Below, in pieces: positions 12,593-56,971 of a stretch of 64,000 nucleotides of DNA. Under the pieces are notes generated by a model. The model had not been told where the DNA came from and made no database searches. It worked only from the letters and a program-made list of their open reading frames with translations. Source of the DNA: Candidatus Nomurabacteria bacterium (GTDB taxonomy: Bacteria; Patescibacteriota; Minisyncoccia; Phycocordibacterales; UBA9973); assembly GCA_026396015.1 (NCBI GenBank), contig JAPLXP010000003.1, positions 26,626 to 90,625 of the forward strand, in the 5' to 3' direction. A program made the position numbers and the translations under genes. How positions within the stretch are numbered: the stretch's first letter is position 1; every line of letters begins with the position of its first letter.

Positions 12593-12808
12593 TGGTTTTT
12601 CTCTTTTTCTCTTTTTCTGTTTTTCTTTAGTTTTCCACCATGCTTTTTACTCATATATAGTAAAAATAAAAAAATAACGATGAAAATACAAAAGAGTATA
12701 AGCCAATCTTTGATGTCTGTGCTCTTTTGCATAGTAGATTTATTTATTCACAGTATATATCTTTTTGACTGGATGTGAAACAAATTAAAATCACTCAATT
12801 GGGTGATT

Positions 12809-14380
12809 TTAATTTTGAGTGCGGGGGCGGTATTGGAGGGCTTCGAGGATATGAGGAGTGGTGATGCGCTCACTACTCTCTAGATCTGCGATTGTGCGGG
12901 CAAGTTTGATCACACGGTGATATGCACGGGCTGAGAGTTGGAGGCGCTCTGCGCTACTATGTAGTATCTCCCTCACTTCGGGTGATAGAGGTGCAAAGGT
13001 GTTCAATTCTTTTACATTCATCTCACTATTTGTTTTTATATTTCTCGTAGTGCTTTTGAATCTCATTTCCTGAATGTTACGGGCGCGAGCTACACGCTCC
13101 TTGATGGTCTGTGTACGATCACCCTCCACACCCTCACTTGCAAGCTTGTCGTAATCTACCGATGATACATTCACCCAGATGTCGATACGGTCGAGGATCG
13201 GTCCTGAAAGTTTTCTGTTGTATCTATCCAGGTCCATTGGTTTGCAAATACAAATTTTTTTCTTGTCACCACGATTGCCACATGGGCATGGATTCATCGC
13301 AGCTACGAGAATAAAATTTGAAGGAAAAATTGCAGAGCCTCGTGCACGAGAGATGGATACGATATTATCTTCGAGTGGCTGACGGAGTGACTCGAGAACT
13401 TTTTTTTCAAATTCTGGGAACTCATCTAAAAATAAAACTCCTTTGTGTGCGAGAGTGACCTCACCTGGTTTTGGATTTGCTCCACCTCCGATCATCGATA
13501 CGTAGCTCGCAGTATGATGTGGTGCACGGAATGGTGAATCAGTCACGAGTGCTCCATCGAGTAATCCGACAACAGAATGTATTCCAGTAATTTCCAAAAT
13601 ATCTTCCTTGGATAATTCTGGTAGGATGTGAGAGAAGACTCGTGCGAGCATCGTCTTGCCTGTACCAGGTGATCCACTCATCGCAATGTTGTGTCCACCG
13701 GCAGCTGCGATTTCCAGTCCTCTTTTTGCACCCTCTTGGCCACGGATGTCAGAAAAATCTATTGTATGTTTTTTATTTTCAAAAATTATTTTTGTCTCGG
13801 GTGTAGGTGTGATTTTATTTTTCTCTGGCTCTAATAAATTTCCTTTTTTATCACGTCGCGGGGTAGATAGATGGTCAATGACTTCGCGGAGATTTCTCGC
13901 TCCAAATATTTTTATCCCCGACACTAGTGCAGCTTCACTCGCATTCCCGACCGGTAAAAATATTTCTTTATAGCCTCTTTTCTTCGCCTCCTCAGCCAGT
14001 GGTAGTGCACCTTTAATATTTTGTAGTTCACCGTTGAGTGAAAGCTCTCCTAAAAATATTTTTTCCTCAGGGTCAAAATCTATCTCACCTGCTGATAGTA
14101 AATATGCTAGCGCGATACCGAGATCAAAGTACGGCCCCTCCTTTTTCAAATCTGCTGGAGAGAGTGAGATGACTATTTTTTGATTTTGATTTTTTGGGGA
14201 ATTGAATCCCGAATTTTTTAGAGCTGAACTCATGCGGTCCTTGGATTCATCGACTGCCTTGTCTGGTAATCCGACAAGAGTAAAAGCATGGAGTGTACCC
14301 TTTGTGATGTCCACTTCGATAGTTACTACTTTGCCTGAAAGTATTTGTGTCTGCGCAGAATATATTCGCGAGAATGACAT
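12809..14380 (-). CDS. comM: ComM/YifB-family Mg-chelatase-like AAA+ ATPase
   Basis: N-terminal Lon-protease-like domain, Walker A (SGSPGTGKTMLA) and a ChlI-type C-terminus. Overall architecture is YifB/ComM. Confidence 0.85.
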   Translation of the reverse strand: MSFSRIYSAQTQILSGKVVTIEVDITKGTLHAFTLVGLPDKAVDESKDRMSSALKNSGFNSPKNQNQKIVISLSPADLKKEGPYFDLGIALAYLLSAGEIDFDPEEKIFLGELSLNGELQNIKGALPLAEEAKKRGYKEIFLPVGNASEAALVSGIKIFGARNLREVIDHLSTPRRDKKGNLLEPEKNKITPTPETKIIFENKKHTIDFSDIRGQEGAKRGLEIAAAGGHNIAMSGSPGTGKTMLARVFSHILPELSKEDILEITGIHSVVGLLDGALVTDSPFRAPHHTASYVSMIGGGANPKPGEVTLAHKGVLFLDEFPEFEKKVLESLRQPLEDNIVSISRARGSAIFPSNFILVAAMNPCPCGNRGDKKKICICKPMDLDRYNRKLSGPILDRIDIWVNVSSVDYDKLASEGVEGDRTQTIKERVARARNIQEMRFKSTTRNIKTNSEMNVKELNTFAPLSPEVREILHSSAERLQLSARAYHRVIKLARTIADLESSERITTPHILEALQYRPRTQN

Positions 14381-48399: not shown

Positions 48400-49245
48400 A
48401 TGAAAACATATAAACCTACAACACCATCAAAGCGTCATCAGACTACTGTCTCTTACCGTAGCGTACTTACTACAGACAAGCCAGAAAAATCTTTGACTCA
48501 TGGATTCAAGCGTTCAGTTGGACGCAATCACCATGGTCGCATTACTACTCGCCATAAGGGGGGTGGTCACAAGCGTCTATATCGTGAAGTTGACTTTATG
48601 TACAACAAGCATGATATTCCTGCAAAGATTACTTCTATTGAATATGACCCAAACCGTAATGCATTTATCAGTCTCGCAGTATTTGCTGACGGAGAAAAGC
48701 GTTATGTAGTGGTTCCAAAATCAGTGAAAGTTGGAGATAAATTCATCGTTGGTGAAAAAGCTCCTCTTACAGTTGGAAACCGCGTTCCTCTAAAGTTTAT
48801 CCCAGTGGGTACATTCGTGTACAACATTGAGATAAAGCCAGGAAACGGTGGAAAGCTCGTACGATCTGCTGGAGCATTCGGACAAGTTGTTGCTAATGAT
48901 GCTGGTTTTACTAACATCAAGATGCCATCAACAGAAGTTCGTAAAGTTTCAGAAAATTGTTGGGCATGTATCGGTGAAGTTTCAAATGGTGAATATCATC
49001 TTCAGAATTTTGGTAAAGCTGGACGTTCACGCTGGAAGGGTATCCGCCCAACAGTACGTGGAAGTGCCATGAACCCTGTAGACCACCCATACGGAGGAGG
49101 TGAAGGAGCTCAAGGACGAGGTCTACGCCGTGCCAAGACTATGTGGGGAAAGCCATCTGGAAAGGGCCAAAAGACTCGTACACCAAAGAAATACTCAAAT
49201 ATGCACATTGTCTCACGACGACGTGTTGGAAAAGCAAAGAAGTAG
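48400..49245 (+). CDS. rplB: 50S ribosomal protein L2
   Basis: GRNHHGRITTRHKGGGHKRLYR and SAMNPVDHPYGGGEG match L2. Confidence 0.95.
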   Translation: MKTYKPTTPSKRHQTTVSYRSVLTTDKPEKSLTHGFKRSVGRNHHGRITTRHKGGGHKRLYREVDFMYNKHDIPAKITSIEYDPNRNAFISLAVFADGEKRYVVVPKSVKVGDKFIVGEKAPLTVGNRVPLKFIPVGTFVYNIEIKPGNGGKLVRSAGAFGQVVANDAGFTNIKMPSTEVRKVSENCWACIGEVSNGEYHLQNFGKAGRSRWKGIRPTVRGSAMNPVDHPYGGGEGAQGRGLRRAKTMWGKPSGKGQKTRTPKKYSNMHIVSRRRVGKAKK

Positions 49246-49349
49246 AAAAAACAAAAATAGTCTATCCTATTTTAAAAAAGTTCTATCACAAAAAGCACCC
49301 GAAAGGGTGCTTTTTGATTGCTTGACAAAATTATACCAGAATATATACT

Positions 49350-49631
49350 TTGGTATATATGACTACAACAACAATGCTTATAAAAACAAATAAAGAATTA
49401 AAAACCAAGGCTCAAATTCTCGCAAAAGAGATGGGCCTACCTTTGGGTACTCTTATAAACAATTATTTAAAGACTTTTGTGATTGAAAGACAGGCTGTCT
49501 TTACTGCCCCAATGCCCAATAAAAAGACTATAAAGGCTATTGAACAGGCAAGACGTGATATAAAGGCAGGAAAGAATTTAGTTGGACCATTTGATAATGT
49601 AAAAGATATGATGAAAAGCCTCAATTCATAA
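49350..49631 (+). CDS. dinJ: RelB/DinJ-family antitoxin
   Basis: LINNYLKTFVIERQAVFTAPMPNKKTIKAIEQARRDIKAGK parallels E. coli DinJ (LVRITLTKVAREKALPFDLREPNQLTIQSIKNSEAG). Confidence 0.6.
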   Translation: MVYMTTTTMLIKTNKELKTKAQILAKEMGLPLGTLINNYLKTFVIERQAVFTAPMPNKKTIKAIEQARRDIKAGKNLVGPFDNVKDMMKSLNS

Positions 49632-49645
49632 TCTTTAAAAATAAT

Positions 49646-49903
49646 ATGATATTTGGTTATTCTCATTCATTTAAAAAAGATTATAAAAAACTTCCTCCTA
49701 AAATCAAGAAGCAACTTGGTATTAGGATTGAAATTTTTAAATTAAATCAATTTGATCGAATCCTGAATAATCATGCCGTACATCATCCATATACAGGATG
49801 TAGAAGTATAAATATTACAGGAGATTTACGAGCTTTGTATGAGGTAGATGGTGATAAACTCATATTTATCCGAATTGGTACGCATAGTGAATTATATGAA
49901 TAG
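49646..49903 (+). CDS. yafQ: YafQ/RelE-family mRNA interferase toxin
   Basis: Size and C-terminus ALYEVDGDKLIFIRIGTHSELYE parallel YafQ (ILIYKLTDKLLRFERTGTHAALFG). Immediately follows the DinJ-like gene. Confidence 0.6.
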   Translation: MIFGYSHSFKKDYKKLPPKIKKQLGIRIEIFKLNQFDRILNNHAVHHPYTGCRSINITGDLRALYEVDGDKLIFIRIGTHSELYE

Positions 49904-50343
49904 TTAAATAAAGAAGCATCCGAAAGGGTACTTTTTGTTTATTTATTCTATATATTATGGAAAATATAAAGCCTGAGGATTATGAAAATTCAAAATATAT
50001 AATTCAAAACAAAATAGATATTAATTTTAATAATTTATTAAAATCTCAAAAAGTCTTTTTAAAAGTATCTAAAATTTCTTTAGTAATCGCAATTCTTGGA
50101 TTTTTTTTGGAGTAATAGGTATATTGGTGATGGTGGCAGAAATGGAAACATTTTTATGTTTTCTGGCCCAGTTTCGTTTATTTCATTTTTGGGTTTTAAG
50201 TCTGATTCAGTAAGATTATCTAAAATAGAAAAATAGCAAAAAGCACCCACATGGGTGATTTTGATTGGGGGTAGGGGAAAAATTTGACAATTATTTTAAA
50301 TTTGCTAGTATAACCCTACGAGCTCAGTTAGAGCTTCTTTATA

Positions 50344-50697
50344 TTGTATATGACAAGATCACTAAAAAAAGGCCCATATGTAGATGAAAGGCTCTTGAAA
50401 AAGATTGCCGGAAAAAAGCCGATTGAAACGGCTATGATTAAGACTTGGTCTCGACCATGTGTTATATCACCAGAAATGGTTGGTTTTATGTTCGGTGTAC
50501 ACAATGGTAAGACTCATGTCGAAGTATTAGTAAGTGAAGACATGGTGGGTCACCGATTGGGCGAATTCTCTCCTACAAAGAAATTCGTACGTCACGGAGG
50601 TAAAATGCAGAAAGAATTAGAACAGAAGAAAAAGGAGGCCGAGATTACAGCCGCAAAGTCAGCAAAGGCTACAACGACCGACACTAAGAAGAAATAA
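50344..50697 (+). CDS. rpsS: 30S ribosomal protein S19 (with K/E-rich C-terminal extension)
   Basis: [15 protein letters not shown]...[28 protein letters not shown] matches S19. Confidence 0.9.
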
Positions 50698-51819: not shown

Positions 51820-52242
51820 ATGTTATTACCCAAAAAAGTAAAATTTAGAAAATGGCACACAGGTCGCAAGAGCGAATCTCGTATGCAAAGTGGAGTTGAG
51901 ACTCGTGGTCTTACTGTTGCTTTTGGTTCTTATGGCCTAAAAGCTATATCAGCTGGACGCATCAAATCAAACCAACTAGAATCTGCTCGTAAGGCTGCTA
52001 CTCGTGCAGCTACAAAGGCAGCTCGCATCTGGATCCGTGTTTTCCCTGATAGACCATTTACAGCAAAGCCAGCAGAGGTAGGTATGGGAAAGGGTAAAGG
52101 AGATCCACAAGGTTACTGCGTAGAAATATTCCCTGGACGTATGTTATTTGAAGTAGATGGTATTCCAGAGGCTCTTGCAAAAGAAGCACTCCGAAAAGCC
52201 GGTACAAAGTTACCAGTTAAGACTCGCGTGGTAGCACGATAA
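51820..52242 (+). CDS. rplP: 50S ribosomal protein L16
   Basis: [16 protein letters not shown]...[12 protein letters not shown] matches L16. Confidence 0.9.
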
Positions 52243-52247
52243 TATAT

Positions 52248-52490
52248 ATGAACACAACAAAGATAAATAAGAATAAAGTACTCAAAGGAGTTGTAACAAG
52301 TGATAAGATGGATAAGACAATCGTAGTATCTGTAACTCGCTTCGTAGAACACGCAAAGTACGGAAAGCGAATCAAGAAGAGCAAGAAATACAAGGCTCAT
52401 GATGAAAACAACACAAAGAAAATTGGCGATGTAGTCGAAATCGAAGAGACAAAACCAATGTCAAAAGACAAGCATTTTAAGGTAATATAG
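52248..52490 (+). CDS. rpsQ: 30S ribosomal protein S17
   Basis: [22 protein letters not shown]...[31 protein letters not shown] matches S17. No L29 gene lies between rplP and this gene. Confidence 0.85.
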
Positions 52491-53184: not shown

Positions 53185-53724
53185 ATGGAAACAACAAAGA
53201 CAAAAGAAAAGAAGGCATACAGTACAATGAAGGCTGAATTCGGCTACAAGAGTAGTATGGCAGCCCCACGCCTCACAAAGGTAGTAGTTGCTTGCGGTAC
53301 TGGTTCAGGTGTAAAGCGTGATAAGGATCGCAATAAATTTATTGCTGATCGTATCGCAAAGATCACTGGACAGAAGCCATCACTCCGTGGAGCAAAGAAA
53401 TCAATTGCATCATTCAAGGTTCGTGAAGGGGATCCAGTAGGAGTCATGGTGACTCTACGTGGAGCTCGTATGTACGGATTCCTAGACAAGCTAATCAATG
53501 TAGCTATCCCTCGTACAAAGGACTTTCGTGGAATTGAACGCAAGATCGTAGACAACATCGGTAATCTGACTATGTCTATCAAGGAGCACACAATCTTCCC
53601 AGAGACTGGCGACGAAGAACTAAAGGATGTATTCGGTCTAGCAGTCACAATCGTGACTACAGCTGGAGACAAGAAAGAGGCTACAAAATTCTTTGAGCTT
53701 ATCGGTGTACCATTCAAGAAATAA
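53185..53724 (+). CDS. rplE: 50S ribosomal protein L5
   Basis: VTLRGARMYGFLDKLINVAIPRTKDFRG matches L5. Confidence 0.9.
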   Translation: METTKTKEKKAYSTMKAEFGYKSSMAAPRLTKVVVACGTGSGVKRDKDRNKFIADRIAKITGQKPSLRGAKKSIASFKVREGDPVGVMVTLRGARMYGFLDKLINVAIPRTKDFRGIERKIVDNIGNLTMSIKEHTIFPETGDEELKDVFGLAVTIVTTAGDKKEATKFFELIGVPFKK

Positions 53725-53790
53725 TCTAGTTTTCATAAAAATCCCTCATCCGAGGGATTTTTTGTTAGTTATGGCGCATAATTCATTTAT

Positions 53791-54027
53791 GTGGTATTAT
53801 ATTTGTATATGAAATTCCCAAGTGTTATACAATTTTTTATCCAAAATGCTGAAGAGGGGGGTTACACCGCTTCTGCTGTTGGTTATTCTATTTATACTCA
53901 AGGAGAGACCCTCGATGAAACTGTTCGCAATATAACAGAAGCAGTTGAATGTCATTTCGGAGAAGATGAAGTAAAATCACGTTCTCTTCCCATTATGGTT
54001 AATTTTGCAGTGCCTACATTGGCGTAA
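53791..54027 (+). CDS. hicB: HicB-family antitoxin
   Basis: IQNAEEGGYTASAVGYSIYTQGETLDETVRNITEAVECHF parallels the HicB/UPF0150 core (EDGGY..FPDLPGC.T.GDTLEEA..NA.EAL.LH). Confidence 0.6.
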   Translation: MVLYLYMKFPSVIQFFIQNAEEGGYTASAVGYSIYTQGETLDETVRNITEAVECHFGEDEVKSRSLPIMVNFAVPTLA

Positions 54028-54032
54028 TCTCT

Positions 54033-54272
54033 ATGCAGAAATTGAAGCAACTTTCAGGCAGGGAAGTAGTAAAAATTTTTGAATCCCATGGTTTTCAAGT
54101 AAAACGAATAGTAGGAAGTCATACTCGACTGACATTACTTAAAGATGATAATTCCTACCATGTGACTATTCCACTCCACAATCCGGTCAAAAAGGGGACA
54201 CTGCACAGTATTATGAAAGATTTTGAACTTTGTTTTGGAAAAGAAGAAACAAATAAATGCTTTTATAATTAA
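54033..54272 (+). CDS. hicA: HicA-family mRNA interferase toxin
   Basis: GREVVKIFESHGFQVKRIVGSHTRLT...VTIPLHNPVKKGTLHSIMKDF parallels HicA/YcfA (GFELVRQKGSHH.F....TV..H...L..GTL.SIL). Confidence 0.6.
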   Translation: MQKLKQLSGREVVKIFESHGFQVKRIVGSHTRLTLLKDDNSYHVTIPLHNPVKKGTLHSIMKDFELCFGKEETNKCFYN

Positions 54273-54276
54273 TGAC

Positions 54277-54358
54277 AAAATTCTTTGAGGCTTTAGGTGT
54301 ACCATTCAAAAAAGCATAATCTAGTTTTCATAAAATCCCTCATTTGAGGGATTTTTAT
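54277..54358 (+). repeat. Direct-repeat copy (~88% identity) of rplE 3' end plus its terminator (53689..53770), flanking the HicBA cassette
   Basis: acaaaattctttgag[ctt/gct]t..ggtgtaccattcaa.aaa...taatctagttttcataaaa(a)tccctcat..gagggattttt in both places. Confidence 0.65.
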
Positions 54359-54398
54359 CTGTTACAAAATTTACATCCAAATATGGTATAATAAGATT

Positions 54399-55181
54399 AT
54401 GAAAAAAATATTAATTGTTTTATTAGTCCTGCTTGTTTTTTGTAGTCTTTTTTATTTTTTAAAAAATAATTCTATTAATATATTAGATAAACCTTCTCCT
54501 CAAATAGAGAATATTAAAACTCAAGCAAGCGAGACAACAAAAACCGAGAATAATATTCAAACAAATCCTAATATTTTACAAGCTGGGTCAATTAGACTTA
54601 TAGAACCATTTGATGGTGAAAAGTTAATCTCTGGTTCTAAAATCAGTGTGCAGTATGAGATATTAGGACCTATAAAATTTGGGTCTATTTTAATATCAAA
54701 GGATTGTAATCATACAATAAATTTACAAGAAAATATTGGAAAACATTCATTTGATTGCACTTTACCAAAAACAATTGGCAATTTAAAGATTGGAATTCAA
54801 GAAATGATATATTCACCAAAGGTAGAAAGTAAAGAGGCGAATGGAAATTTAACTTTAATTGAATCAAATGATTTATCAGTTAAGGATATCTTATATTACC
54901 CTGAACAAATTTTTATGGATGCAACACCTAAAAAACAAAATGATGGGTACGTGTCATTTAAAGTACTTTATAGTGATGGAACAAAAAACGAAGTTGATAC
55001 CTCGTTGTTCGATATTCATATTAAAGATGAATCAGTTGCTTCAATTTTTGGGAAGTCAAATGGAGGGATTGTCAGCTTGGATGGAAAAAAAGAGGGTCAA
55101 ACTCAAATGATTGTTAATTATAAAGGTATCAATAAAATTATTCCAATTGAAGTTTATCCTCACGACGATTCTTTACAATAG
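54399..55181 (+). CDS. Secreted/anchored protein with C-terminal bacterial Ig-like (Big_2-like) domain
   Basis: N-terminal TM/signal. C-terminal ...GGIVSLDGKKEGQTQMIVNYKGINKIIPIEV typical of Big_2. Confidence 0.45.
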   Translation: MKKILIVLLVLLVFCSLFYFLKNNSINILDKPSPQIENIKTQASETTKTENNIQTNPNILQAGSIRLIEPFDGEKLISGSKISVQYEILGPIKFGSILISKDCNHTINLQENIGKHSFDCTLPKTIGNLKIGIQEMIYSPKVESKEANGNLTLIESNDLSVKDILYYPEQIFMDATPKKQNDGYVSFKVLYSDGTKNEVDTSLFDIHIKDESVASIFGKSNGGIVSLDGKKEGQTQMIVNYKGINKIIPIEVYPHDDSLQ

Positions 55182-55204
55182 TTCTATTTATAAATCTAAA
55201 AAAT

Positions 55205-55459
55205 ATGAATGAAATAAAACCATTAGTGAATAATCCCAATATCAATAAACTCAAAACACCAACTTTAGCTATCATCCTACTTAGTAGTGGAATAGTATGT
55301 TTTGGTTTATTCTTTTTTCTATTAATGTACTCATGTAAAGGGGATGATTTTGTTTGTGGAATAGGTTTATTCATTAAAGGCATGGTAATAATACTACCTG
55401 CTTCACTAGTACTATTGATTTGGGGGTTGATTGAGCTTCATAAATTTTTCAAGAAATAA
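55205..55459 (+). CDS. Small two-TM membrane protein
   Basis: Two hydrophobic helices. No family recognised. Confidence 0.35.
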   Translation: MNEIKPLVNNPNINKLKTPTLAIILLSSGIVCFGLFFFLLMYSCKGDDFVCGIGLFIKGMVIILPASLVLLIWGLIELHKFFKK

Positions 55460-55544
55460 TCTCGTTTCCATAAAAATCCCTCAATGAGGGGTTTTTTGTA
55501 CGTGTGTGATAAAATTATGATAGATTTTTATTAACTTATATTTT

Positions 55545-56771
55545 ATGCAATCAAATATTTTTAAAAGATTTTTTGTTTTGATTCTGATCTTCCTGATTCC
55601 TATCTCCAATGCTTTTGCTCGTGGCGGCGGGGGAGGGTCTGGCGGCGGGGGCTCTGGTAGTGGTAGTTCTGGTGGAGGGTCTTTACTCCAGCCAGCTGTT
55701 GCTTTGATGGTCTTCATTACTATTACAATAGTAGGTGTTTATAATAGGAATAAGAAACTTAAACAAACAAAATCATTATTGGAAAAGGCCGTATCTTCAG
55801 ACCCAGCCTGGGGCGAGGCTGGAATAAAACAAATAGCGTCAGATACCTTTAATAAATTCCAAAAAGATTGGAGTGATTTTAATTGTGATGGTATGAAGTC
55901 TTATTTGACTGAGAGTTTCTATCAGAGGGTGTCTTTGGAATTGAACGTCTTAAAAAATCAAAAAAGACAAAATCTCATGTCAGATGTGTATTTGGGTAGT
56001 GTGGTTGTTTGGAATTTAAAAGATAACGAAGGGGTAAATAGTGATTCTGTAACACTTGAAATGTCTGCTTCTGCAAAGGACCAGCTTGTAGACCTTGAAT
56101 GCAATAAAGTTTTGTATACTGATAGTGAACCCTTTATCGAATATTGGACTTTTGTGAGGGTCAACAGTGGGTGGAAATTGAATTTGATAGAGCAAGCCAC
56201 AGAAGATAGGGCTATGAGAGAGGATTCTATTGCAGATTTTGCAGAACGTAACAAATTCTTTTATGATGCTGACTTTGGTTGGCTCATGATGCCTTTGAAT
56301 GGAGTCGTATTCAGAAAGGGGAATCTGACTGTGTCAGATATAAATAATCATGTCATTGGTTCATTCAAGGATAAAATCGTTGAATTTTATACATTCATTC
56401 CAAACCCACAGTCATTTTCTAAAAAGAACTATATTGTCGCTCAGGCCATACTGCCAATAAAATACAAGGATATTCTGGTTAGAAGGAAGAGAATGTTGTT
56501 CAACCTTAGTCCACGTGGACTAAGGAGGGTCAGGACAGAGAGCAACGATTTTGACCGCAAATTCTGCCTCTGGGCGCATCCTCAGGATCAGATTAATTCA
56601 TTCGAGCTATTAACTCCTGATTTTATGGTCAAGATTTATGATCTGCCGTTTGAGTTGAATATCGAGATAGTAGACAATATCCTGTATTTCTATGCTGAAT
56701 CTAGGAAGGATATAGATTACGACGTTATGCTCGATCTCCTGGGTAGAGCATTTGACGATATGGAAAGATAA
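55545..56771 (+). CDS. Membrane protein with Gly/Ser-rich linker and Tim44-like domain
   Basis: Signal/TM, (G/S) run RGGGGGSGGGGSGSGSSGGG, second TM, then a region resembling the Tim44-like fold (DPAWGEAGIKQIASDTFNKFQKDWSDFN...YWTFVRVNSGWKL). Confidence 0.4.
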   Translation: MQSNIFKRFFVLILIFLIPISNAFARGGGGGSGGGGSGSGSSGGGSLLQPAVALMVFITITIVGVYNRNKKLKQTKSLLEKAVSSDPAWGEAGIKQIASDTFNKFQKDWSDFNCDGMKSYLTESFYQRVSLELNVLKNQKRQNLMSDVYLGSVVVWNLKDNEGVNSDSVTLEMSASAKDQLVDLECNKVLYTDSEPFIEYWTFVRVNSGWKLNLIEQATEDRAMREDSIADFAERNKFFYDADFGWLMMPLNGVVFRKGNLTVSDINNHVIGSFKDKIVEFYTFIPNPQSFSKKNYIVAQAILPIKYKDILVRRKRMLFNLSPRGLRRVRTESNDFDRKFCLWAHPQDQINSFELLTPDFMVKIYDLPFELNIEIVDNILYFYAESRKDIDYDVMLDLLGRAFDDMER

Positions 56772-56971
56772 TAAAGTCCCCGAAAGGGGCTTTTATTATT
56801 GTTTTTGCATTTGACATTATCCTACCTATCTGATAGGATAGGGGGACGTGATTGATGGATCCGTTCTTCTCCTTAAGAGATAATAATACTTTTAAGAAAA
56901 GGAATGAGATATCGCAATCATATCCCTAGGGTATATCCCTCGGGTCAGTTTTATTAAAGATAAATTATAAT

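Follow-up and report, generated by a model that had tools for sequence, protein, structure and literature searches.

Organization of the rplB–rpsS junction

We analyzed a 64-kb stretch of DNA from Candidatus Nomurabacteria (candidate phyla radiation, CPR/Patescibacteria), referred to as the window, in which a toxin–antitoxin (TA) cassette lies between the ribosomal protein genes rplB and rpsS. Coordinates are window positions except where a related locus (L number) is named. The gap between the two genes measures 1,104 bp (rplB end 49245, rpsS start 50350), which agrees, apart from small coordinate corrections, with the insert of ~1.1 kb reported in a preliminary description of this DNA. It is preceded by the genes tuf-rpsJ-rplC-rplD-rplW-rplB and followed by rpsS-rplV-rpsC-rplP-rpsQ-rplN-rplX-rplE. 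The gap contains two open reading frames (ORFs) on the same strand, 14 nt apart, as well as three hairpins and two strong promoter-like sites. An identical arrangement was found in independent assemblies (seven contigs from seven sequencing runs). The features of the junction are as follows.

48400..49245, + strand: rplB (ribosomal protein L2), which closes the upstream transcription unit (ORF; Pfam Ribosomal_L2_N/C on identical contigs)
49289..49316, + strand: H1, predicted intrinsic terminator of rplB, CAAAAAGCACCC-GAAA-GGGTGCTTTTTG (RNA fold -16.5 kcal/mol, z -5.6)
49322..49349, + strand: predicted promoter of the TA cassette, TTGACA, 16 nt, TATACT (11/12 consensus positions; best promoter-like match in an 11-kb scan)
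49332..49357, no strand assigned: putative palindromic operator with the half-sites TATACCAGAATAT and ATACTTTGGTATA, lying across the -10 box and the start site (inverted repeat I23)
49359..49631, + strand: DinJ/RelB-like antitoxin, 90 aa, MCX6755887.1 (NTX85_00910), deposited as hypothetical (TIGR02384; profile against PDB)
49646..49903, + strand: YafQ/RelE-fold toxin, 85 aa, MCX6755888.1, labeled RelE/StbE family by NCBI (Pfam; TIGR02385; AlphaFold2 model)
49914..49935, + strand: H2, second and weaker rplB-type terminator copy, immediately 3' of the toxin, GCATCC-GAAA-GGGTAC (-9.3 kcal/mol)
49957..50115, + strand: 52-codon ORF, MCX6755889.1, hypothetical, beginning like dgkA of relatives (no family match)
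50241..50262, no strand assigned: H3, third hairpin copy, terminator-like on both strands, GCACCC-ACAT-GGGTG (-9.9 kcal/mol)
50284..50311, + strand: predicted ancestral rpsS promoter, TTGACA, 16 nt, TG-n-TAGTAT, with the extended -10 element at 50303-50311 (39-species alignment)
50321..50335, + strand: stem-loop AGCTC-loop-GAGCT where the rpsS mRNA is predicted to begin (stem invariant and loop variable in 39 species)
50350..50697, + strand: rpsS (ribosomal protein S19), which opens the downstream unit (ATG 50350)

The start of rpsS at ATG 50350 is kept in relatives; the mechanical ORF begins at TTG 50344. For the antitoxin, ATG 49359 is preferred by gene callers and by the alignment of homologues. 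The start at 49350 in the preliminary description is an upstream in-frame TTG, while its toxin coordinates were correct. A search for the pattern AAGCAYCC-N4-GGGTRNTTTT in the 64 kb returned H1, H2 and H3 together with one site with two mismatches (12787-12810), at a chance expectation of 0.04. The three hairpins are thus of a shared type, as had been proposed, with the third one placed ~10 nt off. The proposed flanking of the cassette by terminators and promoters is likewise supported by prediction. Taken together, promoter-like sites are no more frequent here than expected (31 observed, 32 expected), and we credit the promoters because they are conserved across relatives and not for their consensus score.

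Identity of the toxin and the antitoxin

The toxin scores above the cut-offs of three family models: 41.1 bits for Pfam YafQ_toxin PF15738 (cut-off 30), 31 bits for ParE_toxin PF05016 (cut-off 23) and 39.1 bits for TIGR02385 (NCBIfam RelE_StbE, cut-off 27.9). With the stricter YafQ model TIGR00053 it reaches 35.2, which is under the cut-off of 87.25. An AlphaFold2 model built from 41 homologues (pLDDT 92.5, pTM 0.81) has the microbial-RNase RelE/YafQ fold. The best PDB match in a Foldseek search with this model was YafQ from V. cholerae (9lew_B, E 6.8e-8, TM 0.75). E. coli YafQ (4mmj) was matched with a TM of 0.79, and YoeB and RelE came next. The profile of the toxin family also aligns to E. 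coli YafQ (4ml0_B) with an E-value of 7e-7.

The roles of the YafQ active-site residues were drawn from PMC4652777 and PMC7584586. His87 acts as the general acid, and His50 or His63 is the proposed general base (PMC4652777). According to the profile alignment, five of the six positions of the YafQ set (H50, H63, D67, R83, H87 and F91) have equivalents in the toxin: H43, D60, R76, H80 and Y84 correspond to H50, D67, R83, H87 and F91. The position of YafQ H63 is occupied by Asn56, which is invariant across 41 homologues of the CPR subfamily. The catalytic set is plausible, although not identical to that of YafQ.

The antitoxin matches both RelB/DinJ family models below their cut-offs (TIGR02384 RelB_DinJ: E 8.3e-10, 38.8 bits, cut-off 45.65; PF04221: 18.4 bits, cut-off 22.4). 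A profile of the cassette antitoxin made from eight homologues had E. coli DinJ as its top PDB match (4q2u_A, E 1.9e-5), followed by DinJ from V. cholerae. The pairing of antitoxin and toxin with a 14-nt spacer is kept among the homologous cassettes. Profiles, structure model, five of the six active-site positions and the mostly synonymous strain variation described next support the preliminary assignment of a RelB/DinJ-like antitoxin and a YafQ/RelE-like toxin.

Two strain haplotypes, the window and L001, could be compared. The toxin gene is identical in both. Of the 17 substitutions in the antitoxin gene, 14 affect the third position of a codon and only two alter the encoded residue; this mostly synonymous pattern indicates purifying selection. 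The replacement of YafQ His63 by Asn, together with the decayed appearance of the adjoining positions 49907-50280, could suggest that the cassette is a decaying, inactive remnant. Both ORFs are intact, however, and Asn56 is invariant in 41 family members and therefore a trait of the family. The strain substitutions in the antitoxin are strongly biased towards synonymous changes, and the promoter and the operator are intact and conserved. We regard inactivation of the cassette as quite improbable; the pair is, to all appearances, an intact and ordinary TA system of the DinJ/YafQ type from a CPR subfamily that has Asn where YafQ has His63.

The differences between the haplotypes are packed into positions 49406-49555 (17 in 150 bp, ~11%, compared to ~1% for the ribosomal genes on either side). 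The pattern resembles that of a recombination tract or of an allele exchange limited to the antitoxin.

The cassette as a self-contained unit

The homologous cassettes share an upstream module composed of TTGAC(A/T), a spacer of 16-17 nt, TATACT and a palindrome centered on the -10 box. The promoter is conserved upstream of homologous antitoxin genes in L089, L090, L091, L093, L098, L033 and L066. This common module places the left edge of the cassette immediately upstream of 49322 and the right edge immediately past the toxin stop codon, which gives a cassette of ~585 bp (49321 to about 49906). Its GC content is 29.9%, compared to 37.7% for the window. Since the ATG of the homologous cassettes follows the -10 box by only 7-9 nt, the mRNA is predicted to be leaderless or nearly leaderless. 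A hybrid promoter that reuses the -35 box of rpsS was also considered and rejected, as TTGACA is a component of every homologous cassette at other sites.

The 26-bp palindrome over the -10 box is, at the sequence level, a signature of autoregulation. Its half-sites co-vary across eight cassettes (TATACCA/TGGTATA, TATCCA/TGGATA, TATTCAAAAG/CTTTTGAATA), and we infer that 49332..49357 is bound by a repressor.

The closest homologous cassettes were found on other CPR metagenome contigs, with toxins 56-73% and antitoxins 50-80% identical. Their neighbors include CCA-adding-enzyme-like, TMEM175-like and VTT-domain genes. These contexts are unrelated, and none of the closest cassettes lies inside a ribosomal-protein cluster. 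A tblastn search of a plasmid collection returned no relative of the cassette, and among viral contigs there was one distant match only (27% identity).

At one of these loci (L090, 3489-3860) a homologous cassette is apparently inserted in the 3' end of a CCA-adding-enzyme-like gene, and the displaced native 3' end (...KLHIKHGVRK*) is found downstream of the toxin. At another (L089, 3100-3232) the end of the CCA-adding-enzyme-like gene is intact and lies upstream of the cassette.

Age of the operon break

To place the junction in context we used a comparison set of 80 related species with rplB 71-96% identical, all metagenome-assembled genomes of Patescibacteria, with flanks of 4 kb. Both genes were captured in 52 of the 80 species. 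In 44 of these 52 the gap spans 531-3833 bp; the remaining eight, all distant (rplB <=81%), have gaps of 63-224 bp. At 28 further loci rpsS lies past the 4-kb flank or the contig end. The premise of the preliminary description, that rpsS directly follows rplB, therefore fails across this clade.

In an alignment of 39 species, which also covers those with short gaps, the ~70 bp on the 5' side of rpsS are conserved, and the TTGAC and the extended -10 element of the promoter vary hardly or not at all. The promoter and the 5' stem-loop are 75-89% identical at the DNA level in about 40 related species that lack this TA pair. They are also kept in species whose rplB–rpsS gap is only 125-224 bp. On the other side of the gap, the rplB terminator is orthologous in dozens of relatives and its stem shows compensatory changes (TACCC/GGGTA, GCACCC/GGGTGC, TTCCC/GGGAA, CTCCC/GGGAG and GCGCC/GGCGC). 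In the closest relatives (L008-L010), the rplB terminator is the orthologue of H1 with its left flank. Since the rpsS promoter and the rplB terminator are conserved in relatives that lack the TA pair, the two transcription units predate it.

The preliminary description had proposed that insertion of the TA pair split a continuous S10 operon and that a new promoter now drives rpsS. The position of the cassette exactly between rplB and rpsS, the terminators on both sides and the strong promoter-like site in front of rpsS fit such a scenario. A promoter in front of rpsS is borne out by prediction, but it is not fresh, as it is kept along with the rplB terminator in about 40 species without the TA pair, some with gaps of 125-224 bp. 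The cassette has its promoter at 49322, and this one serves the antitoxin and not rpsS. For the scenario to hold, those relatives would all need to have lost this TA pair while keeping its promoter, for which the sequence relationships give no sign. We give a split caused by the cassette hardly any credence. As judged from these alignments, the split of the operon is ancestral and the TA pair is one of many later occupants.

Upstream of rpsS (window 50284-50349; L012-L086), the stem-loop after the promoter is followed by an AU-rich stretch and could be a 5' stabilizer, an attenuator or a DNA operator. When 44.8-58 kb of the window were compared to Rfam (E up to 1), two sub-threshold chance matches and no known leader were obtained. 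In the most distant relatives (L077, L079, L080, L082 and L087) the conserved promoter lies within a gap of only 63-127 bp, with its -10 box 6-9 nt before the rpsS ATG, which implies a leaderless rpsS mRNA.

Cargo of the gap in relatives

The cargo of the gap differs between species. The commonest cargo is a diacylglycerol kinase gene, dgkA, of ~133 aa (Pfam DAGK_prokar, E 5e-31). It was found at 44 loci overall and in 33 of the 49 ORF-labeled gaps with both genes captured. Further cargo comprises genes for orotidine monophosphate decarboxylase, phosphoribosyltransferase-like, dihydroorotase-like and dihydroorotate-dehydrogenase-like proteins, the latter two labels being read from the sequence and not by profile test. 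Inosine monophosphate dehydrogenase-like, adenylosuccinate synthetase-like and sigma factor-like genes, read in the same way, also occur, as do genes for membrane proteins and a gene resembling REP-associated tyrosine transposases (RAYT-like; REP, repetitive extragenic palindrome).

Pyrimidine biosynthesis-like genes lie in the gap 3' of rplB at ten loci (L008, L010, L015, L017, L020, L024, L026, L038, L056 and L063), an unexpected content in the middle of a ribosomal cluster. RAYT-like cargo genes with the HUH motif NHFHL were observed in L041 (4904-5647), L028 (6252-6980) and L071 (5715-6389).

TA pairs of other types occupy this junction in four species: DinJ-like with ParE/RelE-like in L033 and L066, and HicB-like with HicA in L052 and L086. 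TA pairs thus occur here in five species and, in the window, also at rplE–rpsN (see below). As YafQ-type toxins act on translating ribosomes (PMC4652777), the pair might be functionally tied to ribosome synthesis, for example as a stress switch that tunes the adjacent ribosomal protein genes, and be kept at this site for that reason. The types of TA vary by species, however, and most species carry cargo other than TA pairs. Close homologues of the cassette occur in unrelated places, and the cassette is predicted to be insulated by terminators and to have its own autoregulated promoter. A regulatory tie of this kind appears very improbable.

The alignments suggest that the rplB–rpsS gap is an accessory-gene hotspot that is old in the Nomurabacteria/Paceibacteria clade and apparently undescribed. 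The literature covered on TA systems, insertions and synteny in ribosomal-protein operons, which is an incomplete selection, does not describe the junction as a hotspot.

Hairpin copies and the probable remnant downstream of the toxin

The segment 49906-49966, comprising H2 and its right flank, shares 82% identity over 61 nt with the rplB terminator and dgkA start of L022. In relatives the corresponding arrangement is the terminator followed by ATGGAAAA, which is the start of dgkA. The TA cassette is thus enclosed by two rplB terminator copies, and what may once have been dgkA follows it. H3, located just upstream of the rpsS promoter, shares 74% identity with H1 over 42 nt, flanks included.

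The ~300 bp after H2 have a GC content of 26.7%. The likeness to dgkA is limited to the terminator and the first ~25 nt of the gene. Searches for the dgkA body in 49907-50280 with a six-frame protein hidden Markov model (HMM) of DgkA from 44 relatives, a DNA HMM and a targeted three-frame comparison returned 0-3 bits. The 52-codon ORF had no family match in profile searches, and its length differs between strains (52 and 50 codons). Judged by its sequence, it is probably a decayed remnant and not a gene. The length difference comes from a homopolymer at the end of the ORF, T8 at 50101-50108 in the window and T7 in the second haplotype; a GG->AA change adjoins it. A 7-bp TATATAA indel between the haplotypes lies just 5' of this ORF, at 49948.

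A second island and possible routes of acquisition

In the same window a second island separates rplE (end 53724) from rpsN (start 56972). It contains the following features.

53809-54027: HicB-like ORF (weak), first in the island
54033-54272: HicA toxin (Pfam E 7e-15)
Other ORFs: a 260-aa secreted-looking, an 84-aa membrane-like and a 408-aa DUF3137/Tim44-like protein
About 53690-53765, 54283-54358 and 55449-55497: direct repeats of the rplE 3' end and terminator

The HicB-like/HicA pair is bracketed by direct repeats of ~85 nt (R1/R2), which include 45 nt of the coding 3' end of rplE. A third, shorter copy forms the C-terminus of the 84-aa ORF. The functional copy encodes ...ELIGVPFKK* and the second copy ...EALGVPFKKA*; the FKKA* ending of the latter allele type occurs in other species. 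PADLOC defence models matched neither of the two TA pairs (rplB–rpsS and rplE–rpsN) nor the island proteins.

Repeats that bracket cargo were also found in relatives. In L041 a 55-nt terminator repeat (94.5%) surrounds a RAYT-like and a peptidase-like gene; the former opens the cargo immediately 3' of the rplB terminator and matches NF047646 with E 5e-12, below cut-off. In L076 a 35-nt terminator repeat follows two purine genes. In L009 a 2.4-kb insert with two genes lies between two hairpin copies, and the same site is empty in L008 and L010.

Together, the bracketing of cargo by copies of the upstream gene's terminator (H1/H2/H3, L041 and L076), the occupied site in L009 as opposed to the empty ones in L008 and L010, the three copies of the rplE repeat with its coding 3' end and the leading RAYT-like gene in L041 could point to a dedicated insertion system targeted to hairpins or 3' ends. 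Such a system might be integron-like, of the single-strand HUH/RAYT type or based on a trans-acting integrase, with the terminator copies as attachment sites. Neither island of the window contains a gene of this kind, however: no integrase, transposase or recombinase was found in 49246-50349 or 53725-56971. The sole tyrosine recombinase in the 64 kb is Xer-like, lies 27 kb away and scores 128 bits with the integron integrase model (cut-off 265). A Y1 HUH transposase (IS200/IS605 or REP-RAYT) has no homologue in the window. The hairpins are plain terminators with 11-bp stems and T-runs and are not attC-like. Terminator repeats were found at only four of about 70 occupied sites, and the repeat copies are divergent alleles, which fits recombination between lineages as well as attachment sites. 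We consider a dedicated system unlikely.

Two routes fit the data. The one we favor is recombination anchored in a highly conserved ribosomal protein gene, in which the second join is illegitimate or of the Campbell type. Insertion targeted to the end of the gene, for example by a trans-acting enzyme, fits as well. As a speculation, which we hold to be rather unlikely, the rplB and rplE ends and their terminators may, in Nomurabacteria/Paceibacteria, be the attachment points of an undescribed form of cassette acquisition that duplicates the terminator or 3' end with each insertion and builds small arrays of promoter-bearing cassettes, TA pairs included, in the S10-spc cluster without a resident integrase.

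Some further observations concern the surroundings of the second island. Upstream of rpsN (window 56811-56971), a predicted promoter (TTGACA, 17 nt, TG-n-TAGGAT) and a leader of ~130 nt with conserved GGATCCGTT...CTCCTTAAG also occur in relatives (L021 and L027, after rplE); the latter may be an uncharacterized ribosomal protein leader. Between rplP and rpsQ, the window (52242-52248) and all close relatives lack the gene rpmC (L29), and no rpmC homologue was found within the 64 kb. More distant relatives (L071-L087) have a Ribosomal_L29 gene of 62-70 aa at this position (Pfam E 3e-10).

Proposed model

Based on the cassette structure and the comparison with relatives we propose, with a probability of roughly 70%, that the rplB–rpsS gap harbors an autonomous mobile type II TA cassette, which entered a pre-existing gap between terminator and promoter, an old hotspot of accessory genes. 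The transcript of rpsJ-rplB would be terminated at H1. The cassette's own sigma-70-type promoter would then give rise to a leaderless or nearly leaderless antitoxin–toxin mRNA. Binding of the DinJ-like antitoxin to the 26-bp palindrome, which covers the -10 box and the start site, would repress its own operon, and the antitoxin would neutralize the toxin. Free toxin would be expected, by analogy to YafQ, to cleave ribosome-bound mRNA. H2 and H3 would block read-through, and transcription of rpsS-rplE would restart at the conserved rpsS promoter. The cassette would have neither made the operon break nor supplied rpsS expression. It is probably retained by its own addictive property, at a site where insertions are harmless. 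The data show the identities of the genes, the fold, the kept catalytic positions, the limits of the cassette, the conservation of the signals on either side and the varied cargo of relatives; from these we infer the transcription pattern, the operator binding, the toxin activity and the reason for retention.

Several points weigh against this proposal. The terminators, the promoters and the leaderless start are predictions. As H2 is weak, some read-through into the remnant is likely. The chemistry of the toxin may differ from that of YafQ due to the Asn at the His63 position, and the antitoxin stays under the curated cut-offs of both RelB/DinJ models. Finally, every sampled strain has the cassette: no strain with identical rplB but without the TA pair was found, both contigs found carry it, and recent mobility within this species is therefore not seen directly.

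The S10-spc block, regarded as 'universally syntenic', is cut at two places by conserved terminator–promoter pairs in a large CPR clade, and each cut gathers variable cargo of up to several kb. Since this block underlies concatenated ribosomal-protein trees and checks of contig integrity, the cuts affect the binning and interpretation of contigs. The pairs of occupied and empty sites offer natural material on gene acquisition in gene-poor and plasmid-poor CPR bacteria, in whose genomes TA cassettes appear as compact, self-promoted units that settle at gene ends.

Comparison with known systems

In E. coli the canonical S10 operon runs from rpsJ to rpsQ as one transcript. The order rpsJ-rplC-rplD-rplW-rplB ... 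rpsS-rplV-rpsC-rplP-rpsQ is the same in the window. The cluster of this clade differs in being divided by a conserved terminator and promoter at both rplB–rpsS and rplE–rpsN, and in the missing rpmC between rplP and rpsQ.

In streptococci, integrative and conjugative elements (ICE) and integrative and mobilizable elements (IME) reportedly reside in the 3' ends of ribosomal protein genes, e.g. rpsI and rplL. Inserts of this type are flanked by direct repeats with the 3' end of the target gene, and these repeats can occur in tandem, which matches the rplE island. The islands described here resemble them in the insertion at the end of a ribosomal protein gene. Direct repeats with the gene 3' end flank the insert at the rplE island, whereas the repeats of the rplB island consist of the terminator only. 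Unlike ICE and IME, the islands contain no integrase, relaxase or conjugation genes, and the inserts are only 0.6-3 kb long.

The TA cassettes of sedentary chromosomal integrons (PMC13108822) are similar as small promoter-bearing units among cargo that is split by repeated hairpin sites. In contrast to integrons, there is no intI and no attC architecture, and the repeats are the terminator or the 3' end of the upstream gene. By inspection they are perfect terminator hairpins of 26-30 nt or copies of gene 3' ends.

Among individual toxins, the best sequence-profile matches (E 1e-10) are the YafQ-family toxins HP0894/HP0892 of H. pylori (1z8m, 4ltt, 2otr), which share the C-terminal motif RxGxHSELF with the toxin described here. 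They come from another host phylum and retain the second catalytic His. The YafQ family as a whole comprises many species-specific, often mobile subtypes (PMC7584586).

Compared to the DinJ-YafQ systems of E. coli and V. cholerae (4q2u, 4ml0, 9lew), the identity is only about 23-31%, His63 is replaced by Asn, and the toxin has 85 aa instead of 92. A leaderless mRNA is predicted, the antitoxin is under the family cut-offs, and the pair is known here from sequence and model. The order of antitoxin and toxin, the YafQ fold of the model, DinJ as the top match of the antitoxin, the equivalents of H50, D67, R83, H87 and F91 and the palindromic operator over the promoter are common to both. The TA pair itself is routine, and its toxin was already labeled as RelE/StbE family by NCBI; the notable part is its context, the hotspot within the ribosomal-protein cluster.

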